From: an uncultured Neomegalonema sp.
GTDB taxonomy: Bacteria > Pseudomonadota > Alphaproteobacteria > Rhodobacterales > Rhodobacteraceae
Direction: 5' to 3'
Length of the DNA stretch: 64,000 nucleotides
Assembly: GCA_937922185.1 (NCBI GenBank)
Contig: CAKZUT010000070.1
Coordinates: forward strand, 2,856 to 66,855
Positions 6,983 through 56,359 of this stretch are shown in pieces. A program made the translations under genes and the position numbers. Numbering within the stretch: position 1 is the first letter of the stretch; each line of letters begins with the position of its first letter. The notes under the pieces are model-generated. The model was not told the DNA's origin. It made no database searches and saw only the letters and a program-made list of their open reading frames with translations.

Positions 6983-7998
6983 CCGCAGGCCCTCGCGACA
7001 GCTTCGTCGATCACGGCTTCGAGGGTGACGCCTTCGGCCTTGGCCGCGAAACCCAGGGCCATGCGGTGGCGCAGGGCAGGTCTGGCAAGGGCGACCACAT
7101 CATCCAGCGAGGGAGCGAGGCGACCGTTGAGCAGGGCGCGGGCGCGGCTGGCCAACATCAGGGACTGGGCCGCGCGTGGTCCCGGCCCCCAGGCGACGGA
7201 ATCACGGACCTGATCCGGTGCGCTGGTATCCTCGGGGCGGCAGGAGCGGACGAGCGAGAGAATCGCCTCCGTCACCTTGTCGCCCACGGGCGCGCGGCGG
7301 ATGAGGTTCTGCAAATGCATCAGCCCGTCGGGATCGAGAATCGCCTTTGCCTCGCCCTGCTCCACGCCGGTGGTCGCGACGAGGATCCGGCGTTCCTCCT
7401 CCAGCGTGGGATAGCCGACGACGATCTCCAGAAGAAACCGGTCAAGCTGCGCTTCGGGCAGGGGGTAGGCCCCCTCCTGCTCAATGGGGTTCTGGGTGGC
7501 GAGAACGTGAAAGGGGGCGGGCAGATCACGCTGCTGGCCCGCGATGGTCACCTGCTTTTCCTGCATGGCTTGCAGCAGGGCGGACTGAGTGCGTGGGCTG
7601 GCGCGGTTGATCTCGTCAGCCATCAGAAGCTGACAGAAAACCGGCCCCTGAATGAACTTGAACATCCGCGAGCCGTCGGAACCGGTTTCCAGCACTTCCG
7701 AACCGAGGATATCGGCGGGCATCAGGTCGGGGGTGAACTGGACACGCTTGTTATCGAGGCCGAGCACGGTGCCCAGCGTATCGACCAGCAGAGTCTTCGC
7801 CAGACCGGGAACGCCGACCAGCAGGCCGTGTCCGCCGGAGAGAATCGCAGCGAGGGTGAGTTCGACCACCTCGTCCTGGCCGACGATGCGCTTGGCAACC
7901 TCGCGGCGGACGGCGGCAAGGGTTTCGGCGGCGTTCTCCGCCTCTGCCACGGGGTCGGCACCTGATGCGGCGGGCGCGTCGGCAGTCATGCTTTCCAA
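6979..7998 (-). CDS. MoxR-family AAA+ ATPase
   Basis: GHGLLVGVPGLAKT (Walker A), LLMADEINRASPRTQSALLQAMQE (Walker B and sensor), VLATQNP. Size 339 aa. Confidence 0.9.
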   Translation of the reverse strand: MESMTADAPAASGADPVAEAENAAETLAAVRREVAKRIVGQDEVVELTLAAILSGGHGLLVGVPGLAKTLLVDTLGTVLGLDNKRVQFTPDLMPADILGSEVLETGSDGSRMFKFIQGPVFCQLLMADEINRASPRTQSALLQAMQEKQVTIAGQQRDLPAPFHVLATQNPIEQEGAYPLPEAQLDRFLLEIVVGYPTLEEERRILVATTGVEQGEAKAILDPDGLMHLQNLIRRAPVGDKVTEAILSLVRSCRPEDTSAPDQVRDSVAWGPGPRAAQSLMLASRARALLNGRLAPSLDDVVALARPALRHRMALGFAAKAEGVTLEAVIDEAVARACG

Positions 7999-8210
7999 GG
8001 ATTCGCTCCGTTATCGTTCACGCCCTCGCGGGTCGGCCTGTCGCTTGCTGCACAGCGTCGTTGCACCATCTCGTAACCCGGTGGCATTTCGGACGGCTTA
8101 TCCAGAGGATGGTCCAGCGTCGCCGCCTGTCCAGCGTGTTCGTTCTATCGCGCGTGATGGAACGTATGCAACGCATGGTGTCCAACGCGGTGCAGAATTG
8201 AGGCTACAGA

Positions 8211-8795
8211 ATGTCGAATGACGATCAACGCAACGTACCGCCGGGCACGATCTCCATCGTACAGGCCGTGACGCAGGCCGCAGCGAAAGGCCAGCCGCCC
8301 GTGCATCTCTGGAACCCGCCTCTCTCGGGAACGCTGGACATGCGGATCGCGCGGGACGGCACCTGGTTCTATAACGGCACTCCGATCAAGCGCCCCGGAC
8401 TGGTGCGTCTGTTCGCCTCGGTCCTGAAGCGTGAGGGTGATGATTACTTTCTCGTGACCCCGGTGGAAAAATTCGGGATCGAGGTCGATGACGCCCCTTT
8501 CGTCGCGGTGGATTTCGAGATCGAGGGCGAAGCGGATGTTCCGATTCTCGTCTTCGAAACCAATACGGGCGATTTCGTGCGGGCCGGGGCGGAGAACGCG
8601 GTCACCGTCTCGGTGAACCCCGAAACGGGCGAGCCGTCTCCCTATATTCATGTCAGGAACGATCTTCACGCGCTTATAGACCGTAAATCTTTTTATCGTC
8701 TGGCCGATCGTGCCGAAGCGGGCGAGACCGACGAGGGACCATGCATGGTGGTGCGCTCGGGTGACGAGACATTCATGATCGGTCCGATGACCTGA
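8211..8795 (+). CDS. DUF1285 domain protein
   Basis: GTWFYNGTPIKRPGLVRLFASVLKREGDDYFLVTPVEKFGIEVDDAPF resembles DUF1285. It lies directly upstream of the CoA pyrophosphatase gene, as in many alphaproteobacteria. Confidence 0.65.
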   Translation: MSNDDQRNVPPGTISIVQAVTQAAAKGQPPVHLWNPPLSGTLDMRIARDGTWFYNGTPIKRPGLVRLFASVLKREGDDYFLVTPVEKFGIEVDDAPFVAVDFEIEGEADVPILVFETNTGDFVRAGAENAVTVSVNPETGEPSPYIHVRNDLHALIDRKSFYRLADRAEAGETDEGPCMVVRSGDETFMIGPMT

Positions 8796-8811
8796 CAGGC
8801 ACCGGCATTTC

Positions 8812-9441
8812 ATGGTATTCCGAGGGTACATGATTTCGGAGAATGATATCTTCAGGGCGTTGCAGCCCGTGAACCGCGACCGGGACGATGCCACGTCGGT
8901 TATCGGCGGCAAGCCGAGGCGGCGGGCGGCTGTGCTGTGTCCGCTGGTGCCGCGCGATACGGGGCTGCATGTCATGCTGACGGTGCGGTCGGCGCAGCTC
9001 AAGGTCCATGCGGGGCAGATCGCCTTTCCGGGCGGCAAGATCGACCCGTCAGATGCCTCTCCGCTGGCCGCTGCCCTGCGCGAGGCGGATGAGGAGATCG
9101 GCCTTCCGGCTGAGGATGTGGATATTCTCGGGATGCTCGACCTCTATGACACCAGCACGGGGTTCGTGGTCAGGCCCTTCATCGGAATGGTGGACCCCCG
9201 CTTCGTGCCGATGCCCCATGAAGGCGAAGTGGCGGAAGTGTTCGAGGTGCCCTTCGATTTCCTGATGGATATCGGCAATCACGAACGGATCGAGCGGGTG
9301 CATGAGGGGCGCGTCCGGCGATTTTACCAGATGGTGCATGGCAAGTATCGAATCTGGGGAGCCACGGCGGGGATGCTCCGCAATCTCGCACACCGGATCG
9401 AGCATGTCCGCGAAGGCGGTACTATGTGCGAGGCCGGGTGA
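8812..9441 (+). CDS. NUDIX hydrolase, CoA pyrophosphatase type
   Basis: Nudix box GGKIDPSDASPLAAALREADEEIGL. The upstream LT.R motif (LTVRSAQL) is typical of NudL-like CoA pyrophosphatases. The start may be slightly downstream. Confidence 0.85.
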   Translation: MVFRGYMISENDIFRALQPVNRDRDDATSVIGGKPRRRAAVLCPLVPRDTGLHVMLTVRSAQLKVHAGQIAFPGGKIDPSDASPLAAALREADEEIGLPAEDVDILGMLDLYDTSTGFVVRPFIGMVDPRFVPMPHEGEVAEVFEVPFDFLMDIGNHERIERVHEGRVRRFYQMVHGKYRIWGATAGMLRNLAHRIEHVREGGTMCEAG

Positions 9442-9655
9442 TATTCCTGTGTTGTAGGACACAGCCGTGCCGGCAGGGGCCGCCGCAATATCCTGTAGGG
9501 AATGCGAGGCCATACCGGTTTTGCGATCCCCTGTGGCCATGTGACGTGAAGGTGACAGGTCGCTGGATTGCAGCGTGGCTATCTGATAGTCGAAAGGCGA
9601 TCCGTGCGGATAGTGGGCGGCTCCGGCACGGAAAAATCAGGATCGATGGGCAGAG

Positions 9656-11968
9656 ATGACCAATATCAACAGTCTGAACCAGTCCGGTGATGGTCAGGGC
9701 AGCCGGTATGCCCCGGATGTCGAAAACCCGGATATCGATCTTGGTTTCATCCTGTCGCAGTTGCGTCGGAACCGTATCCTTCTGCTCGGCTTGATCCTGC
9801 TTGGATTGTTGATCGGAAGCATCTCCTATCTTGCCGCCGAGCGGGAGTATACCGCCCATACGACCCTGATGATCAATATCGACGGGGATGCCGCATCGCA
9901 GCAGGGCGCGGGCCTTCTCGGCGCGTTCTCAGTGGGCCAGCCTGACCCCATCGCGACCCCCTTTGCCATTGCCGAGTCCAATGCTCTGCTCGCGCAGGTC
10001 GTGGACGAGATGCAGCTCGTGCTCGACCCTGAGTTCAATGCGAAACTGCGTGAGGTCACTCTCAGGGACAGGATCATTGAGGCCGTGAAACCCATCATCA
10101 CGTCGGTAAAGGACGCGGTGAAGAATCTGGTAAAGGGCGACGCTGCCCTGTCCGACTCCGAGGCACGCGATCCCGATTGGCTGAAGCCCGAAGTGCTGGA
10201 AAGAAGGCAAACGATAATCGCCTTGCGACGCAGCGTCGCGATCACCGATATGCAGGACGACATGCGGCTTCGGATCGCTGTCACGACCGGTGACCGCGTG
10301 AAATCTTCCAGGATCGCCGGGACGATGGCGAACAAACTCAACGCCCTGCTGAAGCAAAGCAAAGTGTCGGCGCTCGGCAGCGCGCGGAAATGGATCGAAC
10401 GCGAGGCCAGTCGCGTTGAGGTTTCGCTTCGTGATATCGAGAGGCAGATCAATGCCGAAATGAGCAGGGGCAGCGTGTCCCCCGATTCCGAGGTGCTCGG
10501 CGAGAATGCTGAGCGCCTGGTCGAGGGCGAGTTGATCCTCGAAGCGAACAAACGCCGGGAACAGGGATTGATCCAACTGGCGGCGGCGATTTCCCGGATT
10601 GAGGATGGCGCGACGCCCCGGTCGGCTTTCGCCACGATGCCCGACGACCTGAGAACCGACCTGTTCACGGATTATGAAGCGATATTCGGGTGGGAGCAAC
10701 GCGATGAAGTGCCGTCACGGTCCGACCTTGCCGCAGCGACCCGCCTGATCGAGCGCGATCTTGCCAGTCAGAGTGAAGTTACATCACGGCGTGAGCAGGA
10801 AATTCTCCCCCTGCGCGCCTATACCCGCAAGCTCTCGACGGCCCAGAACCGTTATATCCAGCTTCAGACGCGCTACACGGCCAGCACGGAACTTCTGACG
10901 ACGCTGCGGGAACGGCTGGCGGAGCTGCAGATCGAACTTGCCGGTGAGGTGGAACGTATGACGGTGCTCGAAAGGCCGTATCCGCCGCTCAGTCATAGCA
11001 GTCCGTCGCTCCCGTTCACCCTTGCATGGTACATCCTGCTCGGACTTGCGGCCGCAGTTGCGGTCATACTCATGCGCTTTTTCAAACGCGATGCCTTCCT
11101 GTCGCTGGAAGATGTGGAGCAGACCTTTGAAGCGCCGGCAATCGCCATCGTCTCGGATTTCCGCCGGAATCTGAGGGATGGATTTTCCTGGGATCGACTT
11201 CCCAACGAAATACAGGAAGCCTATCGCCGCGCTTATACGGCAGTATTCGTTGTGTCCGAGGGACAGGGATCACGGTCCCTGATGGTCACGTCCTCCATTC
11301 CCGGCGAAGGCAAGACGACGAGCAGTCTCTACATCGCCGCCGCCGCCGCCGAAGAAGGCAAAAAGACGCTGGTGATCGACCTCGACTTCCGCAAGCGCAG
11401 CGTATCGCGCTATCTCAAGCTGAAAGGCAAACTCGGAGTGTTTTCGGTATTCCGGGGCGATGACACTCTGGAAAATGCTGTCATTGCCTACAGATACGGG
11501 AAAAACGATAACGGGTTCGATGTGCTGACCACCGACGGACGCCGCAGTTCCGAGGGTGAGAACAGTCGCGAGACCCTGTCGGCAGGAGAGGTGCGGGATC
11601 TGATTGCCTCGGCGAAGGAGCAGTACGAGGTCGTGATCGTCGATGTGCCGCCGATCCTTGCGGTGCAGGATGCCGGCATGGTGGGCCGGATGGTCGATGC
11701 CGTCTTCTGTGTTGTCTCGACCCGTGATTTGCAGAGGAAAGCGGCCCGGCGTGCGGCAAAGGAATGGGAACGCGCCCGTGTGAAGCTGTTCGGCCTGCTG
11801 GTTCGCGGGGAAAAAAGCGAACTCCACGAATATTACGATTACAGCTATTATCATTATGATTATGCGGCGGGCGCGGAAGATGATCGCCCGCGACGGCCCT
11901 CGCAGCGCAAGCCCAAGCCGCGCAAGGATGTGGGGCGGCATCAGGCATCGGGCAGTTCAAGGGACTGA
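9656..11968 (+). CDS. polysaccharide co-polymerase / bacterial tyrosine autokinase (ExoP/Wzc/GumC-like)
   Basis: 770 aa. Architecture: N-terminal TM, a long coiled periplasmic region, a second TM, then a cytoplasmic P-loop (SSIPGEGKTTSSLYIA, VIVDVPP) and a C-terminal tyrosine cluster HEYYDYSYYHYDY. Confidence 0.85.
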   Translation: MTNINSLNQSGDGQGSRYAPDVENPDIDLGFILSQLRRNRILLLGLILLGLLIGSISYLAAEREYTAHTTLMINIDGDAASQQGAGLLGAFSVGQPDPIATPFAIAESNALLAQVVDEMQLVLDPEFNAKLREVTLRDRIIEAVKPIITSVKDAVKNLVKGDAALSDSEARDPDWLKPEVLERRQTIIALRRSVAITDMQDDMRLRIAVTTGDRVKSSRIAGTMANKLNALLKQSKVSALGSARKWIEREASRVEVSLRDIERQINAEMSRGSVSPDSEVLGENAERLVEGELILEANKRREQGLIQLAAAISRIEDGATPRSAFATMPDDLRTDLFTDYEAIFGWEQRDEVPSRSDLAAATRLIERDLASQSEVTSRREQEILPLRAYTRKLSTAQNRYIQLQTRYTASTELLTTLRERLAELQIELAGEVERMTVLERPYPPLSHSSPSLPFTLAWYILLGLAAAVAVILMRFFKRDAFLSLEDVEQTFEAPAIAIVSDFRRNLRDGFSWDRLPNEIQEAYRRAYTAVFVVSEGQGSRSLMVTSSIPGEGKTTSSLYIAAAAAEEGKKTLVIDLDFRKRSVSRYLKLKGKLGVFSVFRGDDTLENAVIAYRYGKNDNGFDVLTTDGRRSSEGENSRETLSAGEVRDLIASAKEQYEVVIVDVPPILAVQDAGMVGRMVDAVFCVVSTRDLQRKAARRAAKEWERARVKLFGLLVRGEKSELHEYYDYSYYHYDYAAGAEDDRPRRPSQRKPKPRKDVGRHQASGSSRD

Positions 11969-41000: not shown

Positions 41001-41022
41001 GGTCGGCCTCCGATATCAGCTT

Positions 41023-41808
41023 TCATCGGTAATCCCGGATTTTCCGGTGGTCCGGTTCCGTGGCCGATACCAGCCGATAGTGCCGTTCCTCGACAACTTT
41101 CATCGCAAAATCCTCTATGACCAGTTCAAAGAACGCAATCCGGTTCCCGTCCATGAACTGCACCGATATCGCCCTGGCGCGCAGGTCCGCAAACCGTTCC
41201 GCACACCAGTCCAGATCCTGCATTGTCTGCACGACGGATATCTGATCGGTGCCGCCCTTTGCCTGCACCGGAACGATGTAATGGCCTCCGTACCTGTCCA
41301 GCCCGACGTAAAGCTCGTCGATTTCTATCTGCCCGACGCCCGCCACGGTGGTCCGCAGGTGGTTCTGGAGCGAATAGGTCGTCAGGCCGAGAAAGATGTC
41401 GAGCAACCTGTTGTACCGGACGATGGCGAGCAGTGCCTGTTCATCGTCGAGAGCATAATGGCGGATGATCTCCGGCGTGGCATCCGGGATTGAGACCGTT
41501 GCAAGGTCCGGGTTGGGGACGATCCGGCTGAGGCTGAAAAGGATGAACTCGTACTTGCCTTTGCCGACCATCGTGATGAGCCATTCCCTGCCTTGAGGCT
41601 GGGTTGCCAGAATACGGTCGGGCAGAGGTATCCTGAACCGGAAAGAGTAGAGAATGTCGCCGAGATTTTTGGGCAGCGATATGGCCAGTGCTTTCGCGGC
41701 TGTTTCGATATCCTCCCGTTCAAACCCGACCACCGCATCGCCCGGTGTGTAGCGGTCAAAGAATATCTTCTCGATGATCGCGCCATAGCGATTGGGGGGT
41801 CTAGCCAT
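41023..41808 (-). CDS. putative type II restriction endonuclease (partner of the adjacent C5 methyltransferase)
   Basis: 262-aa ORF starting at the ATG at 41806-41808. It overlaps the methyltransferase stop (41801-41803) by 8 nt. No known fold was recognised by eye, so the call is contextual. The 379-aa track ORF is an upstream read-through into the methyltransferase gene. Confidence 0.5.
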   Translation of the reverse strand: MARPPNRYGAIIEKIFFDRYTPGDAVVGFEREDIETAAKALAISLPKNLGDILYSFRFRIPLPDRILATQPQGREWLITMVGKGKYEFILFSLSRIVPNPDLATVSIPDATPEIIRHYALDDEQALLAIVRYNRLLDIFLGLTTYSLQNHLRTTVAGVGQIEIDELYVGLDRYGGHYIVPVQAKGGTDQISVVQTMQDLDWCAERFADLRARAISVQFMDGNRIAFFELVIEDFAMKVVEERHYRLVSATEPDHRKIRDYR

Positions 41809-43150
41809 GGGCAGGCCCGTGTTGTGCATTGAGCCTTTCGCGCTCGATATCGACCTGCTTGCGCTTTTTCGCGCCGCTTTTCCGGTCCCGTTTGCTCGGG
41901 GGAGGGGCGATCCCGAAATGGCGGGATGCTTTCGACAGATCGAAATGCAGCAGTTCGGCATCGCCGGGGGAAAGGGTCCGTTCGGGGCGTGTCGCCCGGA
42001 TGCCCAGAGCGTCGCGGATCGCTCCTGCCACCGCTCTCGCCAGAGGCGGGGGCACCGCATTGCCGATCTGACGCGCTCCATGCCATTTCGTCGCGTTGAA
42101 CCTGAACCAGTCGGGAAAGCCGTGAAGGCGGGCCATTTCCCGCACTGTGATGCAGCGGTCATGGGCGTAATGGATAGGCCGGGGGCTGGTGAATGCCCCT
42201 CTCGCCCCGTCCGTTCCTGCCCTCAGAGTGTTGGATACGCCTTCCATCGGCAATCGAAAGAAGCGGCTGATCGGTTCGACCGTGCCCGGTGCCGTTTCGG
42301 CGAAACGGCGTTTTGATATCCCGGTATGGACCGTACGGGCACTGGACGTGAGGAATTCCGGCTGCCAGTCCCGCACATAGCCGAAATGCCATGCGTCATT
42401 GCCGGTGCATCGCATCTCGGCGGCATAGGCCGAGGCGCGGCCATAGCGTTCCGCCCGGACCATATCGCCGGTCAGCAAGGCGTCGAAACCATCGGCATCG
42501 GGCAGGTCGCCGATGGCCTGCCGGACCGTCGGGCCGTCAGGAAGATGATCGTACTGTCTGCTCTGTCCGGCGATATTGGTCAGAGCGGCGGGGTAGTCCG
42601 GGACGGTTCCGCCTTCTCTCACACCCATCAGGAACAGGCGCTGGCGGTTCTGCGGCACGCCGTAATGGGCGGCGTTCAACACCTGCCACGGCAACCGAAC
42701 CCGGTATCCTGCCTGCTCGAACGCCTCCACAAGCTCATCGAGAACGGCACGATGCTTGCCGACGGTCAATCCTCTGACGTTCTCGAAAACAAAGCTGCCT
42801 GCCTCCAGTTCAGCGACGATTCTGACAAAATCGCGAACCAGCGCATTGCGCGGATCATCCAGAACACGGTGACCGATCAGGGAAAACCCCTGACAGGGTG
42901 CGCCCCCGAAGACGCAATCGATACGGCGATCCCCGATGCCGGCGGCGTCGCGGATATCCGCACCGCTCAGGCCCTCCACGGATCGGGGCAGAATGGTCGT
43001 CTCCGGGAAGTTGAATGCATGTACCGCGCTGTGTACCGGGTCGATTTCCACGGCGGCGGCGATGTCGAAACCCGCCTGCTCAAATCCCAGACTCAGCCCT
43101 CCGGCCCCGGCAAAAAGATCGATCCCTGTGGGTCGCATGAATCCCGCCAT
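41801..43150 (-). CDS. DNA (cytosine-5)-methyltransferase
   Basis: Canonical motif order: I DLFAGAGGLSLG, IV GGAPCQGFS, VI ENVRGL, VIII QNRQRLFL, a variable TRD, and X GNAVPPPLA. Confidence 0.9.
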   Translation of the reverse strand: MAGFMRPTGIDLFAGAGGLSLGFEQAGFDIAAAVEIDPVHSAVHAFNFPETTILPRSVEGLSGADIRDAAGIGDRRIDCVFGGAPCQGFSLIGHRVLDDPRNALVRDFVRIVAELEAGSFVFENVRGLTVGKHRAVLDELVEAFEQAGYRVRLPWQVLNAAHYGVPQNRQRLFLMGVREGGTVPDYPAALTNIAGQSRQYDHLPDGPTVRQAIGDLPDADGFDALLTGDMVRAERYGRASAYAAEMRCTGNDAWHFGYVRDWQPEFLTSSARTVHTGISKRRFAETAPGTVEPISRFFRLPMEGVSNTLRAGTDGARGAFTSPRPIHYAHDRCITVREMARLHGFPDWFRFNATKWHGARQIGNAVPPPLARAVAGAIRDALGIRATRPERTLSPGDAELLHFDLSKASRHFGIAPPPSKRDRKSGAKKRKQVDIERERLNAQHGPAHG

Positions 43151-47666: not shown

Positions 47667-48371
47667 ATGCGCGCCTTGCTGTTTCTGCTGATCTTTCTGA
47701 TTCCGGTATCCGCCCATGCGCGCGGTTGTACGTTGGCGCTGGTTCTGGCAACCGACACGTCGTCCTCCATCGACGAGGATGAATACGCGGCCCAGATGCA
47801 GGGGCTGGCCGGGGCTTTCCGCACCGATGTGCTGCGCGAGGCGCTGCTGGGGACGCGGGGCATCCATGTCGAGGCAACCGTCGTCCACTGGAGCGGATAC
47901 AGGCATCAGGAACAGGTCGTGCCATGGACCGCGCTGACCGGGGCCGCGATCATCGACGATTTCGCGGACCGCATCGCCGCCGTGCCCCGCGCCGAGGACG
48001 GTCAGGCGACGGCGCTGGGCAAGGGGCTGGAATTCTCGGCAAGGCTGCTGCACGGGCGCGACTGTGACCGGCACATCATCGACCTGACCGGAGACGGGGT
48101 GAATAATTTCGGGATCGGGCCGCATTACTTCGCCGAGCGGGGCGATTTCGACGGCATCACCATCAACGGCCTTGCCATCCGGGGGGCCTTGCCCGACCCG
48201 GAGCCGTATTTCCGCGAGCACGTCGCGCGCGGGCCGGGGGCCTTCGTGATGGTGGCGGGTGGCTACGGGGAATATGCGGAGGCGATTCTGGAAAAACTGC
48301 TGCGCGAGATTTCTCCGCGCTACACCCTGCGCGTCACGCCTTCCCCGCGTCTTCCGGCGGCAGGGCGGTAA
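47667..48371 (+). CDS. DUF1194 (vWA-like) secreted protein
   Basis: Signal peptide MRALLFLLIFLIPVSAHA, MIDAS-like LATDTSSSID, DLTGDGVNN. Its 3' end overlaps the convergent STAND gene by 38 nt. Confidence 0.75.
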   Translation: MRALLFLLIFLIPVSAHARGCTLALVLATDTSSSIDEDEYAAQMQGLAGAFRTDVLREALLGTRGIHVEATVVHWSGYRHQEQVVPWTALTGAAIIDDFADRIAAVPRAEDGQATALGKGLEFSARLLHGRDCDRHIIDLTGDGVNNFGIGPHYFAERGDFDGITINGLAIRGALPDPEPYFREHVARGPGAFVMVAGGYGEYAEAILEKLLREISPRYTLRVTPSPRLPAAGR

Positions 48372-51318
48372 AGAACCAGCCGGTGATGAGATCATGCATC
48401 GCCGATACCGTCAGCGCGCGCGGGTCCGTGCGCCCCAGCAACGCCGCCAGCCGGTCGATCCGCCCCAGTTCATCGGCGATTTCCACCACCACCGTCGCCC
48501 GTTGCGGATCAAGGGGGCGCTGCGCGTCACAGTGCAATTCACGCGGCCAGAGCGGTGTCTCGCGCGCGATGTCATGCAGCACGGCATGGACTGCTTTCGA
48601 TGATGCCGTCCGCAGGCAGGTCACGAGCGGTGCATGAAGATCGGGGTTCGCGCCCCGCATGACCGGCGCGAAGGCCGGGGCAATGCCCGACAGGTCCACC
48701 GTGCTTTTCGCGATGGCCTGCCCGGTGCGGCCTATGGCGCGATGCAGGTCGGCCAGCGATATCGCCTCCCCCCGCAGGCCCGCGATCCCGTCGAAGACCG
48801 CGCGCTCCGCCGATCCCTGCGCCGGGGTCGCCATGCCGTCCCGCCACCGATACGCCGCCGGGCGCAGCGCGGGGATCTGCCGCCCCGCGATGATATCCGA
48901 CCGTCGCAGGCGCAGGCGATCGACCGCATGATCGAAGGCATCGACCTGCATGTCGTATTCCTCGATGACCCGGCCCGACAGAAAGGCCCGCCAGTCATAG
49001 ACCCCGTTGATCTGCGCCAATGCTCCGGCCAGAGCCGCTGCCGCCGCTTCCCCCTCCACCGCCGCCTTCGACAGCACCAGTTCCCAGACGGGCGTATGGA
49101 ACAGCCCCCCCAGCATCGCGCGCCGGAACCGCTCCACGGCCAGCCCGGAGGGATCATCTCCGAGCAGGGCGAGATAGCGGTCGGCAAGCTGCACGACGCG
49201 GGGGAAATCGGCCCCGGCGAAGCGGGCGGCGATCATCCGCTCCATCCGGGCGATGGAATCCGGCACATCGCCGGTCATCGCCCTTCTGCGCCCGGTCATC
49301 CGCTCCGCATTCAGGATCGCCGCCTCGGCCCTTTCGCGCGCGGCGCCGGACAGTGCGGCCCGCTCCGCCGCGTCCATCGGCATATCCACTCTGGCCTTGA
49401 CCGGTGCCCGCCAGTCCACAGGCAGGATTTCGAGATCATCACCGAGTTCCTGCCGGATATCCTGCGCCGCTCCGTGTGACAGATCGGGAGGGGTCGCCCC
49501 GGTCCCCGCAAGGGCCTCGTAATAATACGCATGAGCCATGCGCGTGGCATCGGAAAGCGCCTGCCAGCGGCCCCGCGCCGCGTCATCCCCGTGCGGCCCT
49601 TCCCGGTACCACGCCGCCGCCGCCATGCATGTCGCGCGGGCGGGCGCGGCCATTTCCGGCACGATCAGCCGCCGCAGTTCCGGTCGGGGCCGCAGCGCGA
49701 AGCCGCCCTCATCGGGTGTCATCAGCCAGGTTTCGCGCGCCAGCGCATCGTACAGCGCCCCGGCCTCCGCCGGACCGATCTTCCGCCCCGGCCCCGCCGG
49801 TAGCGACCGGATCAGATCGGGGGTCAGGGTTCGCAGGATCACCGCGCCCTCAACCAGCGCCCGGATATCCGGCTCCCTGATCCGGCCCGGAATACACCGG
49901 TACAGCACCATCCGGGCGGTTTCGACCGTCGCGGCTTCCCCGGCCTCCAGATCCCGGATCAGCGGCTCCAGCGCCTCCGGGCGGCTATGGGCAAAGCGTA
50001 CCCCCATCAGCAGGGCCATCGGATGCCCGCACAGGGCCTTGGTCAGCCGCCGCCGCCTCGCCGTCCCGTTCAGGTGCCGTGCGCCGGTCAGGGTGGCCAG
50101 GCGCGCATCCTCATCGGCCAGCAGCGCCATGCCGTCCTGTTCGGCAAGGCCCGCCAGATGGACCCCCCGCTCCGTCGGCCCGAAGACCTGTTCCATCCCC
50201 GACGGCTGCGCTCCGCCCCCCGATACCACGCTCCGCAGGCCGGGCAGGCGCGCACGCAACATCGCTTCCAGCGCGAAGATCATGTCCACGGTGCCGCCCC
50301 CGCGCCGGTCCACCGCCTCGAAACTGTCGAACAACACGGCAATTGGCCGCGCCCGCAGCGGGGCGGCCCAGTCCTGCGACAGCGCATCGAGGGTCACGGT
50401 ATCGAGCCAGCCGATCTGGGACTCGAAACTGCGTTCCCGCGCCGCCACGCCCGACACGGGCAAGTCCCGGCGCAAGGCCCGCAACCCGTCATCCACGGCC
50501 TTGACCATGGCGGGATCATCCAGCTTGTGTTTGATCCCGGTCGCGCACTGGCGCAAAAATTCTCCCAGGATTTCGACCGGCTTGCCGGACATGAGCTGTC
50601 GCCGGTCGAAATCGATCACCACGGTCAGGGGCGAATCCGAGCGCGGCTGCCAGTAGCCGAACATCCGCGCCAGCAAGGCCGATTTCCCCGCTCCCGCGAT
50701 CCCGGAGAGACAGACGGGCCGCGCATCCCCGTCCTGTCCCCGCAGAAACCGCGAGAGACGGGCGCGTTCGGCGTCATAGCCCCGGTGCCGGTGCGGCAGG
50801 ACAAGGGTCAGGTCGCGGCGGCGCTGAAGTTCCTGAATCCGCCGTTTCGCCGCCGTTTCCAGCACATCGAGCGCCGCCCCGTCGAGCGGTGCGACATGGC
50901 GGGCGAACTGCGCCGCCTCCAGCATCGCGCCGACATCGCGCATCTCCGCCAGCAGGGCCGCGTCATCCTCGCCATGGCCCGATATATCCACGCGAACCGC
51001 TTCTTCCGACAACAGCCGCCGCAGGGCGATGCCGAACCTGTCTTCCGGCCACAGAGGCGGTGCCTGCGCCAGCAGCCGGTCGATACCTGCCCGACTGACC
51101 AGCGCCTGAAACTGCCGCACCCGCGCATCGGGGGTCAGCACCCAGCCATAGCCGGGCGTCCCTTCCTCCAGCACCTCCGCCACATGCCCGGACAGCTCGC
51201 GCCACAGCGCCTGCCGCTGCGCCGTATCCAGCCCCAGCGCATCGGCCATGGCGGCGGGGGTGAACGCCCCCGACACCGCGCCCAGTTCCAGCGCCGAGCG
51301 GCAGAGCGGCGAGGTCAT
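48334..51318 (-). CDS. large STAND-like P-loop NTPase (994 aa) with an N-terminal domain of about 170 aa and a helical C-terminal region of about 570 aa
   Basis: Walker A LSGIAGAGKSALLARM (50680-50703), preceded by an FLRG-type helix. Candidate Walker B IAVLFDSFE. A long Ala/Leu/Arg-rich helical C-terminus. No signal peptide or TM. ATGA start/stop overlap with the upstream gene at 51315-51318. Confidence 0.75.
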   Translation of the reverse strand: MTSPLCRSALELGAVSGAFTPAAMADALGLDTAQRQALWRELSGHVAEVLEEGTPGYGWVLTPDARVRQFQALVSRAGIDRLLAQAPPLWPEDRFGIALRRLLSEEAVRVDISGHGEDDAALLAEMRDVGAMLEAAQFARHVAPLDGAALDVLETAAKRRIQELQRRRDLTLVLPHRHRGYDAERARLSRFLRGQDGDARPVCLSGIAGAGKSALLARMFGYWQPRSDSPLTVVIDFDRRQLMSGKPVEILGEFLRQCATGIKHKLDDPAMVKAVDDGLRALRRDLPVSGVAARERSFESQIGWLDTVTLDALSQDWAAPLRARPIAVLFDSFEAVDRRGGGTVDMIFALEAMLRARLPGLRSVVSGGGAQPSGMEQVFGPTERGVHLAGLAEQDGMALLADEDARLATLTGARHLNGTARRRRLTKALCGHPMALLMGVRFAHSRPEALEPLIRDLEAGEAATVETARMVLYRCIPGRIREPDIRALVEGAVILRTLTPDLIRSLPAGPGRKIGPAEAGALYDALARETWLMTPDEGGFALRPRPELRRLIVPEMAAPARATCMAAAAWYREGPHGDDAARGRWQALSDATRMAHAYYYEALAGTGATPPDLSHGAAQDIRQELGDDLEILPVDWRAPVKARVDMPMDAAERAALSGAARERAEAAILNAERMTGRRRAMTGDVPDSIARMERMIAARFAGADFPRVVQLADRYLALLGDDPSGLAVERFRRAMLGGLFHTPVWELVLSKAAVEGEAAAAALAGALAQINGVYDWRAFLSGRVIEEYDMQVDAFDHAVDRLRLRRSDIIAGRQIPALRPAAYRWRDGMATPAQGSAERAVFDGIAGLRGEAISLADLHRAIGRTGQAIAKSTVDLSGIAPAFAPVMRGANPDLHAPLVTCLRTASSKAVHAVLHDIARETPLWPRELHCDAQRPLDPQRATVVVEIADELGRIDRLAALLGRTDPRALTVSAMHDLITGWFFTALPPEDAGKA

Positions 51319-53405
51319 GGCCCGTCCTCCGCCACCGCCCCGCCGAAATAGGCATCCGCCACCCCGCTCACATGGTCGGAAACGAACCGCGACAGGGTTT
51401 CCAGCGGCACATCATCCCCGGCATGGGAGGCGAGGATGCCGCCCAGAAACTGGAGGCTCTCGTCAGATAACGGTTTTTCGGTATTGCGCGCGCCCCGCTC
51501 CATCAGCCATTCCACGAACCGGCCCTTGAGGTCGGCGAAATCCTCGCCTCCGATCACCGAATGGATCACCGTTTCGGGGGGCAGGCCGCTGATCGACACC
51601 GCGCGGGGCAATCCGATCAGTACCACGCGGACATCGGGCATCTGCTGAATCTGATTATAGATCGTGGCGAGAAATTCCCGCCCCGAGGCGTTCGACAGGT
51701 CGCTGCGGTCGAGGTCATCCAGCACGATCCACACGATCTGATCGCTCAGGCGCTCACGGATTGCCTGCGCCACGGCCCCCACCAGTTGCCGCACATAGGC
51801 GGGGGTCGTTGTCTCCGGGGCTGCGGGCAGGGTCGGCACCAGATCCTCGGCGAAGCTGCCCAGCGTATTGGCCGCCATGCTGTAGGCATCCACTGCCATA
51901 TCGCTGGCGCGAAAGAGAATATGGTGATGCTCCGGCCCCCGGAACAGCGCGCGCAGGATATCGACCGAGAAGGACTTTCCCGGTCGCCGCAGCGCCGTGG
52001 CATCCGGGTCCACCTCGATCCGCATGATCTGTTTCTCGCCGTCGAACAGGGTTTTCAGATCATCGAGAAACCCCTTGCGCCCGAAGACCGGATGCCGCCC
52101 GTCAAGGCATCCCCGAAAGGGCCGCAGCACCCCGGCTTCCGCGATATCGGCCAGCTTTCCGGCCCTGTCGAGCTGTCGATGGATGGCGGTCAGGGTGATC
52201 GCGACATTGACCGCCTTGGTGCGCTCGCCGGGATTGGCGGGCGGGCGTTTCGCCTTCAGCCCCATGTAATGCAGGCCCGCCACCTCGCCCGTCTCGTCGA
52301 GCAGCAGCCCGCCGGAGGAGCCTTGCACGGTGCTGGCATCATGGAAAAAGCGATGCGGCCTGCGCGCGCCCGCCTGGAGCTGTTCGGTGCCGCGCGTCAG
52401 GGTCTGACCGTTTTCGGACGGATGATGCACGGCCCAGACGGCTCCGGGCAGCGCCCGCCTTTTCGGCAGGGTGTACCATCCCCGTTGCAGCCCCGGCACC
52501 CCGTCGAGCCGCAGGACCGCGAAATCGAGCCGGTCCGCCACCGAATCGAGCCAGTCCTTCCGCAGGTTGAAATCGTCCCACCAGTAATCCGCCGCGTCGG
52601 GGGGTTCGAGCGGCGCATCCTCGCCCCGCGCGATCAGCCAGTTCTCGCTCACATCGAAGACCGAACTGTCGGCATCCTCCAGCCCCGTCGTCTCCGAGAA
52701 ATCGAACTGTACCCACAGCCGCCCCTTGCGCGGGAGCGGATGGGGCACATGCGAGACGACATGCCAGTTGGTCAGCACCGTCCCCGGCCCGATCAGAAAT
52801 CCCGTGCCGCTGACCGGCTTACCGGCGTCGTCGATGGAGACGATCCGGCATAATCGCCGCCGCGCTTTCAGGATCGCGGGCAGTAAATGGCCGGGATCGG
52901 TCCAGACCTCGTTATCCGAGGTCAGAGCATGGCGCGAGGCCCGGTGCAGGATCGCACGCGGGACATCGACGGGCGCGTCGAGCGCGGCCCCCATGGCCCG
53001 CCCGATCCCGACCCGCGCCTCTTCCGCCGCCCCGGCATCGGCTCCCGTCACGAGGCCCGCCGCCAGCGCGGCACTGAAACAGGCGACGATCTCCAGCGGA
53101 TCACCCAGCGCCGCAAGCGCCAGCCGCATCGCCTCGCCGCTGTCACCGGGCCGGGGGGCGGGGTCGCATTCCGCGCAGGCATCGGCCCCCAGCACGACCG
53201 CATGGATGAAGTTCTCCGGCCCGCCTTCGGGTCGGCGCTCGGTCAGCCAGCTATCGTAGAACTGCCGGAACCGCGCGCGCGAGGGCGCGATCCCCCCTGT
53301 CGGGGCGCGCAGGCGATCATAGAGAGCGGCAACCTGCGTCAATCGTCCGCCCCTTCGTTCAGCAGCCCGGTACGGAAGGCCCCGTCGGCCTTCGCCGCCA
53401 CGCAT
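51315..53405 (-). CDS. chymotrypsin-fold serine protease domain fused to a C-terminal P-loop NTPase-like domain (696 aa)
   Basis: Protease triad candidates: GTGFLIGPGTVLTNWHVV (His 52761-52763), LDFAVLRL (Asp 52524-52526), GSSGGLLLD (Ser 52314-52316). This is followed by PVFGRKGFLDDLKTLF, an AxxxxGKS P-loop (ALRRPGKS, 51972-51995) and hhhhDD (VWIVLDDLD). The start is uncertain: ATG at 53405 (67-nt overlap with the upstream gene) or TTG at 53340-53342, which overlaps the upstream stop. Confidence 0.75.
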   Translation of the reverse strand: MRGGEGRRGLPYRAAERRGGRLTQVAALYDRLRAPTGGIAPSRARFRQFYDSWLTERRPEGGPENFIHAVVLGADACAECDPAPRPGDSGEAMRLALAALGDPLEIVACFSAALAAGLVTGADAGAAEEARVGIGRAMGAALDAPVDVPRAILHRASRHALTSDNEVWTDPGHLLPAILKARRRLCRIVSIDDAGKPVSGTGFLIGPGTVLTNWHVVSHVPHPLPRKGRLWVQFDFSETTGLEDADSSVFDVSENWLIARGEDAPLEPPDAADYWWDDFNLRKDWLDSVADRLDFAVLRLDGVPGLQRGWYTLPKRRALPGAVWAVHHPSENGQTLTRGTEQLQAGARRPHRFFHDASTVQGSSGGLLLDETGEVAGLHYMGLKAKRPPANPGERTKAVNVAITLTAIHRQLDRAGKLADIAEAGVLRPFRGCLDGRHPVFGRKGFLDDLKTLFDGEKQIMRIEVDPDATALRRPGKSFSVDILRALFRGPEHHHILFRASDMAVDAYSMAANTLGSFAEDLVPTLPAAPETTTPAYVRQLVGAVAQAIRERLSDQIVWIVLDDLDRSDLSNASGREFLATIYNQIQQMPDVRVVLIGLPRAVSISGLPPETVIHSVIGGEDFADLKGRFVEWLMERGARNTEKPLSDESLQFLGGILASHAGDDVPLETLSRFVSDHVSGVADAYFGGAVAEDGP

Positions 53406-56140
53406 TCGAGATCATGGGCGAAGTTCTGCGACAGGCTCTCGCCCCCGAAATGCAGCCCGCAGAATCGCGCCTTGCCATGCAGCGATACGATGGCCGACCC
53501 GGACGAGCCGCCCATGGTCGTGGCATCATGGCTGAAACTCCAGCCTGCCGGATCGCCCTCCAGCGTACCGGGGCGCTGCATCACGAAGCCGGGACTCATG
53601 TACTGCACCCCGTATTCGTCGCCGTAGAGTTCGCCGATCCGATCCCAGAAGGCGAGAAACTCCTCCGCGTCATCCTGTGCGTCGGGTCCGGCATTGCGGC
53701 CCGGCGGCTGCGCCGGATAGCCCATGACCAACAGCTTTTGCACATCCTCATCGGTGGTCGAGACCCGGCCCGTATCGATAGGTTCGGGCGGATCGTCGCC
53801 CTCCGCGTTCTGCCCGATTTCGAGGATCGCCATATCCAGCTTGCCCAGATGCACCGCGCGCCCGATGCGATGGCGCCCCGCCGTCGCGATGCCGGTGACG
53901 GGAAAGCGCATCGTGTCGTCGGTGCCGTCGGGATCGAAGACGACGGAGGCCGTGCGCCGCATCCTGAAGGCCTGTTCCCCCTCGGCGGCGGGCAGTCCCA
54001 CGGCAAAGGTATCGAGGACATGGCGGTTGGTCATCACCCGGTTCCTGCCGATCACGAAGCCGGTCCCCGCCTGCATCCGGCCCCGTCCGGCGACGTCGAT
54101 ATCAATGCGTCCCGTGCGTTGGGCCAGTGCCTGCCATTTCCGGCGGGTCGGCACCAGATCACCGCGCCAGTCGCCGATATCCTCGTCCAGCACCTCGCTG
54201 CCGTCCCGCCGGATGCGGATCGCCGGACGCCCGGTCAGGCGCACCAGCGCCTCCAGCACGGCCCGCGCCTCGGTCGCCGCGTTGCTGTCGGAATCGTCCG
54301 GCGTGTCGCCGCGTATAATGGCATCCATGACCGGCGCGATCCGCTCCAGCGCCTGCGTCTGGACCCCGGCATCGGTCAGACCCGGCGCGCGCGCCGCCCG
54401 GCGTTTCAGCGCGGCCTCGGCGGTGTCGATGATTGTCCGCGCCCCTTCCTGCCGCACCCGTGTCAGGGCCTGCGCCGCGCTCTCGACACCTGCGCTTTCG
54501 AGGCCCGATCCGATACTGACCGACAGGCGTTTCATCGCCGGGGCCAGCGCCATCGGCTCCGTTGCGCGTCCCACCACCAAGGGCGCGGCGGCCAGCATGA
54601 TCTCCGGGTCGGGCGCAGGTGCGATCAGGGCGGCCAGACCCGGCGAGGGCATGGCGGGCATGGCCGTCTCGATGACCCGCGCGCCCGGTTGTCGGCGCAT
54701 TTCCCGATCCGCCGCGATGAAACTCGCCTCCGCCTCATAGGGGCCGCCCGCCGGATCGGTGCCGAGGATCGCGCGGATCGGGTCATCGCCCGAGGCGGCG
54801 GGCGGGGCGGGAATATCTCGCAGCGGCAGGTCGAGCAGGGCCTCCGCATCCACGATTCCGGTGCCCGTCGCCTGCGAATCCCAGTCCGCCGGTGTCCGTG
54901 CCGTTGCGCGCAGGGCCGACCGGAACAGCGCCTGCACCGGCACGCGGCGCGACCGGGCCTCGGCCTCGACCGCCGCCGTCCCGAACCGTTCCAGCCACAG
55001 GGCCGCGACCCCCGCCGTGATCGCGGCGGCAAAGGATGTGCCCTGTCCCCGGTCATCGATCGTATCGGTTGACGGATCATCCCCCGTGCGCCGCGCCACA
55101 TGAACGTTCTCGCCCGGTGCCGAGACATCCACCGCCGCTCCCCGGCATGACCCGCGCCAGATTCGTCCGTCCGAATCCACCGCCGCCACGGCGATCACAT
55201 TCGCGTCCCAGGCCGGGTAGGTGACTATCCTGACGCAGTTCCCCGCCGCCGCGAGAACGATCATATCCGCCGCCACTGCCCGCGCGATGGCCCGTCGCAG
55301 GGCGCGTCCGGCAATTGGCCCGCCCAGAGACATGGTTACGATGCGGCATCCGTCATGGCGGGCATGATCGACCGCCCGCGCCACCGCCACGCCCGAACCG
55401 ATCACCACCGAGTTCACTGCCCGGATCGGCACCACGGTCGCGCCGGGGGCCGAGCCACAGAGCGTAGAGGTATTCCGGCTGGCAATCACCGAGGCCGTCG
55501 CGGTGCCATGTCCCGGCGAGCGCATGTCCGGGGATAGCGGGTCGGTCGGGTCGGCCTTTCCCGCCATGAAATCGAACCCCGCCGCGCGGTCGATTACCCC
55601 GTCGAGTTCGCGGTGATCGGCCACCCCGGTATCGGGATGCCCGATGCGGATTCCCGTGCCCGACACCCCGTGGGCCGCGCGCGCCCGGTCGGCGCGGATC
55701 AGCTTGATCGCCCAGTGCGGATCATCCCGTGAGGGGGCGTCCGACAGGCAGAACAGGCCCGCAATGGCCCCCACGCTCTCCGGCGCGCCCCGGATGCTGA
55801 CGGCATCGACATAGAGCGGGCCGGTCTCCGGCGTTACCGACACCAGACCGAGGGCCACGCGCAGGTCTTCGGCCTCATGGAACAGGTAATCCGGCGGCTG
55901 TTCTATGGGGACGCCTGCGAATAGCAGGATTGCCAGCACGGGGTCATCCCCGGAATAGGGCAGCAGGTCGAACCCGTCCGCGCCCAGCAACGCCGCGATC
56001 CGTTTCCGTTCGGCATCGAGATCGGGGGGCGTGGCATATTCGAGGGTGAAACCGAGCCGGTCATCGGGGTAGCCGAGGGTATCGCTGCGCCGCGAAACGC
56101 CCGCCGCCGCCTTGAATAAATCGAGCAAAACAACCCCCAT
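53339..56140 (-). CDS. dual serine protease: N-terminal domain of about 150 aa, subtilisin-type S8 peptidase, helical linker of about 240 aa, and a C-terminal chymotrypsin-fold protease
   Basis: S8 triad: IGHPDTGV (Asp 55631-55633), GHGTATAS (His 55508-55510), AAAGN oxyanion Asn, GTSFAAA (Ser 55034-55036). Second protease: GTGFVIGRNRVMTNRHVLD (His 54020-54022), LDMAILEI, GGSSGSAIV (Ser 53501-53503). No signal peptide recognised. Start is the ATG at 56140; the track uses a GTG at 56158. Confidence 0.8.
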   Translation of the reverse strand: MGVVLLDLFKAAAGVSRRSDTLGYPDDRLGFTLEYATPPDLDAERKRIAALLGADGFDLLPYSGDDPVLAILLFAGVPIEQPPDYLFHEAEDLRVALGLVSVTPETGPLYVDAVSIRGAPESVGAIAGLFCLSDAPSRDDPHWAIKLIRADRARAAHGVSGTGIRIGHPDTGVADHRELDGVIDRAAGFDFMAGKADPTDPLSPDMRSPGHGTATASVIASRNTSTLCGSAPGATVVPIRAVNSVVIGSGVAVARAVDHARHDGCRIVTMSLGGPIAGRALRRAIARAVAADMIVLAAAGNCVRIVTYPAWDANVIAVAAVDSDGRIWRGSCRGAAVDVSAPGENVHVARRTGDDPSTDTIDDRGQGTSFAAAITAGVAALWLERFGTAAVEAEARSRRVPVQALFRSALRATARTPADWDSQATGTGIVDAEALLDLPLRDIPAPPAASGDDPIRAILGTDPAGGPYEAEASFIAADREMRRQPGARVIETAMPAMPSPGLAALIAPAPDPEIMLAAAPLVVGRATEPMALAPAMKRLSVSIGSGLESAGVESAAQALTRVRQEGARTIIDTAEAALKRRAARAPGLTDAGVQTQALERIAPVMDAIIRGDTPDDSDSNAATEARAVLEALVRLTGRPAIRIRRDGSEVLDEDIGDWRGDLVPTRRKWQALAQRTGRIDIDVAGRGRMQAGTGFVIGRNRVMTNRHVLDTFAVGLPAAEGEQAFRMRRTASVVFDPDGTDDTMRFPVTGIATAGRHRIGRAVHLGKLDMAILEIGQNAEGDDPPEPIDTGRVSTTDEDVQKLLVMGYPAQPPGRNAGPDAQDDAEEFLAFWDRIGELYGDEYGVQYMSPGFVMQRPGTLEGDPAGWSFSHDATTMGGSSGSAIVSLHGKARFCGLHFGGESLSQNFAHDLECVAAKADGAFRTGLLNEGADD

Positions 56141-56359
56141 AATACCTGTTGATAACACAATTCAACCGGTTTACCGTACATGAGAATTACTGGGGCAACA
56201 ACAACCACATCTTGGAAAAAGCGGTATTTTGTTCATGACGAACAATCCGTTAGATGTCTTGTTCCGTATGCTCCGTATAAGTGGCTTTCGGATCGGATGA
56301 GGGGGCATTCCGACCTGAAATAGATGTATTCTTTATTGACCCGTTAAAGGAGTATACCC
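56141..56359. promoter_or_regulatory. AT-rich divergent intergenic region between the protease/NTPase operon and the tyrosinase operon
   Basis: It is visibly much more AT-rich than the flanking DNA (runs such as ATAATACCTGTTGATAACACAATTC and GTATTCTTTATTGACCC). AAAGGAG lies 7 nt before the tyrosinase ATG. Specific -35/-10 boxes were not assigned. Confidence 0.45.

Follow-up and report, generated by a model that had tools for sequence, protein, structure and literature searches.

The closest described relatives of the locus considered here are bacterial CARD-NLR operons, in which a protease with a CARD-like domain adjoins an NLR-like ATPase. The locus is a three-gene operon (genes A, B and C) in a 64,000-nucleotide stretch of contig CAKZUT010000070.1 (positions 2,856 to 66,855; GenBank assembly GCA_937922185.1) from an uncultured Neomegalonema sp., and "the window" hereafter means this whole stretch. 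In the Caulobacter crescentus system LypABC, LypA joins a CARD to a trypsin and a divergent ATPase, LypB belongs to the NLR-like ATPases, and LypC is a trypsin-endonuclease fusion (Banks et al., 2026, PMC13236601). Lysis needs the peptidase activity of both LypA and LypC as well as LypB's ATPase activity, whereas the nuclease of LypC can be dispensed with; the LypA CARD binds LypB's N-terminal domain, and overexpression of LypABC is toxic (PMC13236601). The final lytic effector downstream of LypABC is stated to be unknown (Banks et al., 2026, PMC13236601). CARD-like domains have poor sequence similarity among each other, and the one from Azospirillum sp. TSO35-2 has been solved as PDB 8SS1 (Wein et al., 2023, PMC10312443). 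In the part of that report consulted here, only the TSO35-2 operon's CARD-like domain is studied and no function is reported for its S8-trypsin gene (PMC10312443). A partly overlapping group is the mostly alphaproteobacterial NucA-peptidase system ("System 3"), for which a cascade of proteolytic steps has been suggested (Kaur, Burroughs, Iyer and Aravind, 2020, PMC7159879).

In the window, gene A encodes a polypeptide with a subtilisin-type S8 peptidase and a chymotrypsin-fold (trypsin) peptidase, and is likely the effector-position protein of a CARD-NLR-type STAND cell-death or immunity operon. The initial annotation, which described the double-protease protein, treated A in isolation and missed the context of a three-gene CARD-NLR or LypABC-like operon. 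Membership in this operon explains the second protease gene and the NTPase gene that follow A.

Homology to published CARD-NLR operons

All three genes have homologues in the Azospirillum sp. TSO35-2 operon (locus L079), where the open reading frame (ORF) directly after the A homologue matches PDB 8SS1 (E 4e-59). The first gene of that operon encodes S8 and Trypsin_2 domains and can be aligned with the profile of A across 860 columns (E 3e-107), while hhalign of the B profile against the CARD-protease covers 410 columns over the trypsin and ATPase-like domains (E 7e-23) and BLASTP matches C to the ATPase over 449 amino acids (aa; E 6e-12). This three-way homology places the window operon in the published CARD-NLR family, with a subtilase in the effector position. 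The gene order is also the same, with an S8-trypsin protein followed by a CARD-trypsin-ATPase-like protease and an NLR-like ATPase. The relationship is nevertheless distant, as A is about 31–33% identical between the two and the window B and C are unmatched by tblastn at 1e-5. The window genes show the following domains of the family: B has trypsin and ATPase-like domains (by Pfam, AlphaFold2 and hhalign to the protein bearing 8SS1), the adjoining C, an NLR-like STAND ATPase, has its Walker A and B motifs intact, and the third gene, A, encodes a predicted effector fused to a trypsin. A is an S8-effector-type addition to a known system rather than a new kind of protein, since the operon family, its architecture and its logic have already been published.

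The comparison with LypABC was made by published domain maps and not by sequence. B resembles LypA in its helical bundle, trypsin and divergent ATPase; C resembles LypB in its N-terminal domain and helical repeats, with the Walker A Lys and Walker B Asp at nearly the same positions; and the C-terminal module of A is the trypsin type of Trypsin-NucA fusions, which is the architecture of LypC. LypC, however, carries its endonuclease C-terminal to the trypsin, whereas A carries a pro-subtilase N-terminal to it and no nuclease. LypC is also the last gene of its operon, whereas A is the first, and the window has no LypC-like gene. The type II gasdermin (CARD-NLR) system of Lysobacter enzymogenes likewise has two serine-protease genes before an NLR-like ATPase, with the CARD on the second protease, but the window operon has no gasdermin and its first protease has an extra S8 domain.

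The window operon also overlaps the NucA-peptidase system. System 3 shares with it several trypsin-like peptidases, sometimes with S8 and trypsin in one polypeptide, and includes a STAND NTPase with a Death-like domain and trypsin (PMC7159879). As in System 3, Trypsin-NucA and EAD1-trypsin genes occur in operons related to that of the window, and the trypsin of A is itself of the NucA-associated type. In A, however, S8 and trypsin flank a helical linker and not a NucA domain, and tblastn with stand-alone NucA and Trypsin-NucA queries found no NucA in the 64-kb window. NucA was thus looked for and is absent, and the window operon is not filed under the NucA-centred definition.

Table 1. Features of the A-B-C operon and its flank in the window, with coordinates counted from the first base of the window and residues as in the 933-aa form of A and the 675-aa form of B.
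Feature	Positions	Strand	Remark
Gene A, 933 aa: I9-like prodomain, S8, helical linker, LypC-type trypsin	53339..56140	-	predicted cytoplasmic double serine protease
A, I9-like prodomain, aa 25-105	55826..56068	-	AlphaFold2 secondary structure; Foldseek to 3whi
A, prodomain-to-S8 junction, aa 106-160, candidate processing site	55661..55825	-	low-confidence loop and conserved P-E-S
A, S8 subtilase catalytic domain, aa 161-440	54821..55660	-	Pfam E 7.6e-32
A, S8 codons	D170 55631-55633; H211 55508-55510; N301 55238-55240; S369 55034-55036	-	codons checked
A, helical linker with conserved motif, aa 441-625	54266..54820	-	not a NucA domain
A, LypC/NucA-type trypsin module, aa 626-933, including pre-segment EALVRLTGRPAIRI	53342..54265	-	Pfam, hhalign
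A, trypsin codons	H707 54020-54022; D769 53834-53836; S880 53501-53503	-	codons checked
Gene B, 675 aa from TTG overlapping the A stop codon (TTGA)	51315..53342	-	LypA (CARD-protease) architecture
B, six-helix N-terminal bundle, aa 3-120	52968-53342	-	AlphaFold2
B, trypsin, aa 150-400; H194/D273/S343	52143-52895	-	
B, P-loop ATPase-like domain, aa 420-675; G455-K456-S457, D542	51318-52085	-	
Gene C, 994-aa NLR-like STAND ATPase; ATG overlaps the B stop codon (ATGA)	48334..51318	-	LypB architecture
Terminator-like hairpin with T-run right after the C stop codon	48302..48320	-	consensus match only
Intergenic region, 42% GC, between A and the divergent tyrosinase gene	56141..56359	.	presumed promoter region
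Tyrosinase with C-terminal DUF7868	56360-57787	+	divergent from A
PpoB2 copper chaperone	57797-58609	+	

Gene A, a pro-subtilase joined to a trypsin

The ORF of A runs on the minus strand from a GTG at 56158 to 53339 (939 aa). The ATG at 56140 is the start in a 100% identical database copy (P0001) and in all homologues, which have an N-terminus of the form M..LLKAAA, and the protein therefore most likely has 933 aa, the mechanical start lying too far upstream. Residues are numbered here as in P0001, and ORF numbering is P0001 plus 6. The initial annotation had remarked on AT-rich first codons, and the first 30 nt indeed have a GC content of 0.40, the lowest of any 30-nt window of the ORF (overall 0.69). 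This stretch runs on into the 42% GC intergenic region and is read as an ordinary translation-start feature. A promoter scan of the intergenic region (56141..56359) found no sigma-70 consensus site upstream of A. No signal-peptide-like N-terminus is present in the A family (median Kyte-Doolittle maximum of 0.92 over 15 residues in the first 60 aa of 68 homologues), and A is predicted to be cytoplasmic.

Pfam assigns Peptidase_S8 to ORF residues 167–419 (E 7.6e-32) and Trypsin_2 to ORF residues 698–896 (E 1.3e-11), which bears out the description of two mechanistically independent serine-protease folds in one protein. The database search for the same fusion proposed in the initial annotation found it widely. 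Relatives occur in 275 of 185,579 species-representative genomes (one genome per species), and among the matches listed, comprising 120 protein clusters, all are 40–100% identical to A and nearly all are about 900–960 aa long with both domains. The relatives are mainly from Rhodobacterales, Rhizobiales and Azospirillum, with some from Actinomycetota and Beta- and Gammaproteobacteria, and the nearest are from Rhodobacterales. Homologues lie on complete chromosomes and on plasmids; among the latter are conjugative plasmids of Rhizobium and Sinorhizobium and the megaplasmid of Ruegeria pomeroyi DSS-3, which carries a copy of A-B-C (SPO_RS20860, SPO_RS20855 and SPO_RS20850). For conservation and for structure prediction, 68 homologues (38–82% identical) were aligned, and AlphaFold2 gave a confident, compact model of A (mean predicted local distance difference test score, pLDDT, 87.6; predicted template modelling score 0.88).

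The S8 domain has the Asp-His-Ser triad in order together with the oxyanion Asn, within the motifs DTG, HGT, GN and GTS, and matches subtilisin DY and subtilisin Carlsberg in the PDB (E 1e-26 to 1e-22). D170, H211 and N301 are kept in 68/68 aligned homologues and S369 in 67/68, with one Thr. The trypsin residues H707, D769 and S880 are invariant (68/68). Both triads are thus complete, as first proposed, and both proteases are apparently active, judging from residue conservation.

The region in front of S8, where the initial annotation expected a propeptide, has no Pfam match in its 160 aa, and Inhibitor_I9 in particular does not match even at E values up to 10. In the AlphaFold2 model, however, aa 28–104 form a beta-alpha-beta-beta-alpha-beta fold with pLDDT of about 90–98. 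Foldseek against the PDB superposes A on unprocessed pro-subtilisin E (3whi, 355 residues) over 430–432 columns with a template modelling score (TMt) of 0.78–0.79, compared with about 300 columns and a TMt of about 0.87 for mature subtilisins. The value for 3whi is too high for the catalytic domain alone, and the N-terminus of A is, in this model, an I9-like prodomain by both fold and position. A therefore resembles pro-subtilisins with an I9 propeptide, such as 3whi, in having this domain before the catalytic domain and in superposing jointly with the pro-enzyme. It differs from them in lacking a Pfam I9 sequence match, in its predicted cytoplasmic location and in a junction of about 55 residues between prodomain and S8, within which the loop of aa 115–123 has a pLDDT below 50.

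Between the two proteases, aa 441–675 are all-helical in the AlphaFold2 model, in agreement with the helical linker described initially. The linker carries the motif RF.AEAGFLA.D...R..P.R..ALESA..PRPS at about aa 467–500, in which E491 (codon 54668–54670) is invariant. A NucA domain hidden in the linker was ruled out, as neither Pfam (Endonuclease_NS) nor hhalign gave a signal and AlphaFold2 predicted helices only.

The C-terminal module (aa 626–933) aligns by hhalign with the trypsin module of Trypsin-NucA fusions from related loci over 258 columns (E 2.5e-43), and the match takes in the EALVRLTGRPAIRI pre-segment and the insertion WDR..ELYGD.YGVKY.SPG. By the same method, the trypsins of A and B match each other at E 1.9e-17, and B matches the Trypsin-NucA modules at only 1.3e-14. 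The initial annotation had considered the two chymotrypsin-fold modules of A and B to be paralogous, based on a likeness between the segments preceding each protease domain. The likeness exists (BLASTP E 4e-5 over 81 aa) but consists mainly of the first beta-strands and beta-hairpin of the trypsin fold, and the register first given was slightly off, as ALAQRTGRIDIDV aligns with ILKARRRLCRIVSID. From these profile comparisons, the two domains appear to be homologous only at the level of the Trypsin_2 superfamily and are not close paralogues.

The best matches of the A trypsin to proteins of solved structure, by sequence, are staphylococcal glutamyl endopeptidases: Esp (E 9e-7), V8 (E 8e-3) and the Spl proteases. 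Close to its catalytic His and Ser, the module is like these S1B enzymes (V8/SspA, Esp, Spl), with TTMGGSSGS..CGLHFGG aligning to STVGGNSGS..IGIHYGG, whereas the pre-segment and a helical insertion at aa 825–839 set it apart; the matches are local and of low identity. A also has several conserved Glu-Ser/Thr motifs where its model is extended or of low confidence, namely PES at aa 120–122 (55775–55780), with E121 in at least 90% of homologues, ALESA..PRPS around E491 (54665–54670) and ESA near aa 548 (about 54490–54500). The V8-like relatives and the conserved Glu-Ser motifs in exposed segments together suggest Glu-directed processing. The A trypsin may accordingly be specific for Glu, and these motifs may be processing sites for a V8-like protease, with E121-S122 and the site after E491 as candidates.

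The PADLOC models named "nacht" and "subtilase" match A, and the output does not state their system. The "nacht" model (PDLC03010) covers ORF residues 561–916 (53393–54457; E 1.3e-19) with nearly all of its 378 positions, corresponding to the helical pre-segment and the trypsin.

Genes B and C and the operon in relatives

A, B and C form a translationally coupled operon, with the stop and start codons of adjacent genes overlapping in TTGA and ATGA. The TTG start of B at 53342 is supported by a 100% identical 675-aa protein (P0121) and by the alignment with locus L084, the closest syntenic relative, while the mechanical ORF starts at 53405 (696 aa). The AlphaFold2 model of B (pLDDT 88.3) shows six helices at aa 3–120, a disordered linker, a trypsin domain and a P-loop fold. 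The triad of B (in the 675-aa numbering) is present in 44/44 homologues, and its Walker A motif is partly degenerate (Gly in 44/44, Lys in 35/44), with the Walker B Asp in 43/44. Foldseek of the whole B model returned only trypsin matches (DegS, Esp and V8), so this search does not address the CARD or ATPase folds.

C has a Walker A motif GxGGxGKS (K212) and a Walker B motif with D331 and E334, conserved in 36–37 of 37 sequences, as well as a weak Pfam AAA_16 match and a helical C-terminal half. Between the window and L084, A and B are 77–78% identical and C is 56% identical overall; A, B and the first 400 aa of C together span 70–78% identity, compared with 33–52% for aa 401–994 (48337–50118). 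This fast divergence looks like the pattern expected of a sensor, and the C-terminal half of C is a putative sensor region by this comparison. The hairpin after C likely marks the end of the operon.

Pfam searches at E values up to 10 gave nothing meaningful for aa 1–160 and 441–683 of A, the N-terminus of B or the N- and C-termini of C. An adaptor domain shared among the N-termini of A, B and C and the A linker was also sought and rejected, as the hhalign probability was at most 1.3% for every pair; EAD-type coupling is thus not detectable by sequence.

Gene context was counted in 59 species-representative loci with enough flanking sequence, with NucA looked for within 10 kb. B follows A in 43/59 loci and the complete A-B-C operon is present in 37/59, of which 28 have no NucA within 10 kb and 9 have a NucA gene nearby. 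Another 6 loci have A and B with C undetected, 7 have A and NucA without B or C, and 9 have A alone or in another context. A metagenome-assembled genome (MAG) of Xanthobacteraceae encodes B and C as a single 1520-aa fusion (L021, 12795–17357), and in Oricola (L003/L037; P0038, 1457 aa) A is joined to a TPR-S domain and an additional trypsin, beside a TIR_2 gene. Downstream of C in L084 (13306–17467) are a Trypsin-Endonuclease_NS gene (673 aa; LypC-like by domain architecture), a 385-aa gene without a Pfam match and an EAD1-trypsin gene (327 aa), followed by SLATT/DUF4231 and DUF4062 genes on the opposite strand. This extended operon is exactly System 3. Downstream genes of this type are not present in the window beyond C (48334), where the operon ends.

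A different context was observed in Mesorhizobium (L002, L016 and L042) and in L025, where A is followed by a stand-alone Endonuclease_NS, a second S8, a 565-aa protein, a MoxR-like AAA_5 and a protein of more than 1600 aa. Upstream of A, these loci have YcaO, animal-haem-peroxidase and Amidase_2 genes. This context resembles the MoxR-vWA ternary systems with peptide-modification accessories.

Alternative readings and proposed mechanism

Several observations weigh against assigning the window operon to CARD-NLR-type cell death or immunity. The window locus has no obvious defence island, its neighbours being cobT, pepF, an EamA transporter gene and a tyrosinase gene, and no PADLOC model matches C. 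The CARD-like fold of B is only suggested by six predicted helices; hhalign of the B N-terminus against the 8SS1 region gives nothing (E 0.35), and no chain matched when the B N-terminus profile was compared with the PDB. A occurs without B or C in 16/59 loci and can therefore also function, or persist, in other contexts. Among the described relatives, the active site of the Lysobacter first protease is dispensable for defence against the phages tested, and Caulobacter LypABC serves gene transfer agent (GTA) release rather than proven phage defence (PMC13236601). No experimental test of an S8-type member was found in the literature searched.

The last of these relatives leads to the view that the same machinery has another job, as a regulated module for host lysis that a mobile element or a GTA has co-opted, and not an anti-phage one. 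This is unlikely. The locus is flanked by housekeeping genes and the relatives are alphaproteobacteria. Many alphaproteobacteria carry GTAs. LypABC itself is required for GTA-mediated lysis and lies outside defence islands (Banks et al., 2026, PMC13236601). However, no GTA or prophage genes were seen beside the window operon, the rapid divergence of C's sensor half fits an arms race, conjugative plasmids often carry homologues, and CARD-NLR operons are enriched beside known defence systems (Wein et al., 2023, PMC10312443).

It is improbable that A is a stand-alone degradative or peptide-maturation protease (of the type found with ribosomally synthesised and post-translationally modified peptides, cyanobactins or quinohemoproteins, or mycosin-like) whose link to B and C is incidental. 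The loci with A alone, the YcaO and haem-peroxidase genes near A in Mesorhizobium, and sub-threshold NCBIfam matches to mycosin (TIGR03921), PatA/PatG and QhpE could be read in this way, but the bit scores are far under the cut-offs (134 vs. 279, 55 vs. 421 and 49 vs. 165, respectively). A also lacks a signal peptide, and the window contains no precursor-peptide or YcaO gene. The translational coupling of A to B, the frequency with which B follows A, and the presence of the same trio in the published Azospirillum operon argue further against an incidental link.

The tyrosinase gene divergent from A raises another idea, in which the A and B proteases activate the neighbouring latent tyrosinase (DUF7868) as a bacterial analogue of the prophenoloxidase cascade. 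In 11 loci, comprising the window and 10 of the other 84, the tyrosinase-PpoB2 pair adjoins A-B-C, and three arrangements occur: divergent upstream of A (the window, L084, L036, L019, L010, L015, L008, L012 and L071), on the same strand after C (L011, 18408–20533) and after Trypsin-NucA (L055, 17431–19520, an actinobacterial MAG). Most A-B-C loci, however, have no tyrosinase, and in the reverse direction A, B or C was seen close to the tyrosinase homologue in essentially none of 80 metagenome loci; the genes upstream there are unrelated, and Pfam assignments of the neighbours show no general link to proteases. The association could also reflect shared ancestry within Rhodobacterales, and activation of the tyrosinase by A and B seems very doubtful. 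The related suggestion that, in tyrosinase-flanked operons without NucA, the cascade would unmask a cytoplasmic latent tyrosinase whose quinone or melanin chemistry is the killing step is similarly far-fetched. If true, the tyrosinase reading would give bacteria an equivalent of the prophenoloxidase cascade of insects.

An assembly or frameshift artefact, or a dead pseudo-enzyme in one of the two protease domains, is refuted by the recurrence of the fusion, at about 900–960 aa in nearly all of the 120 clusters listed and across 275 species genomes including complete chromosomes and plasmids, and by the conserved triads, and nothing was found in its favour.

Two of the metagenome contigs with tyrosinase homologues showed other arrangements. 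In L152 (8136–9848 and 5402–6505), the gene immediately upstream of the tyrosinase homologue encodes an unrelated S8 peptidase and a trypsin gene is close by, and in L124 an 830-aa protein with a PNP_UDP_1 phosphorylase domain (7429–9921) precedes the tyrosinase. Elsewhere in the window, about 5 kb beyond the operon end, a C-5 cytosine DNA methylase gene (41801–43150, minus strand) lies beside an unassigned 379-aa ORF in a patch of lower GC content (a dip to 0.585 at 41001–42000) and may be part of a restriction-modification system. A tRNA scan of the 64-kb window found none.

With A taken as the effector-position protein of a CARD-NLR-type operon, a mechanism can be proposed. The NLR-like ATPase C would sense a trigger through its fast-evolving C-terminal helical region and oligomerise. 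B, with its CARD-like helical bundle, trypsin and ATPase-like domain, would be recruited to C through the N-terminal bundle and its protease switched on. Binding of a CARD to the NLR N-terminal domain, dependence on both peptidases and on the ATPase, and toxicity on overexpression would apply here by analogy with the relatives, whereas the domains of A, B and C with their conserved catalytic residues, the coupling of the operon and its homology to the TSO35-2 operon were observed in this analysis. The proteolytic signal would then pass from B to A, a latent cytoplasmic double protease in which S8 may be held by the I9-like prodomain and tethered by the helical linker to the LypC-type (V8-like) trypsin module. 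A would be processed, probably at the conserved exposed Glu-Ser sites, and the released protease activity would kill or lyse the cell, resulting in abortive infection or serving a co-opted lysis function. We infer the order of the cleavages, the Glu-Ser cleavage sites and S8 as the killing activity.

In bacteria, CARD-NLR systems are the counterpart of inflammasome and apoptosome signalling, and their way of killing has yet to be explained. The S8-type operon puts a candidate effector and a LypC-type protease in one polypeptide, with a prodomain-like fold in front. It thereby offers a compact handle on whether its three serine proteases, which have two folds between them, act one after another, where they cleave, and whether the subtilase is the killer.

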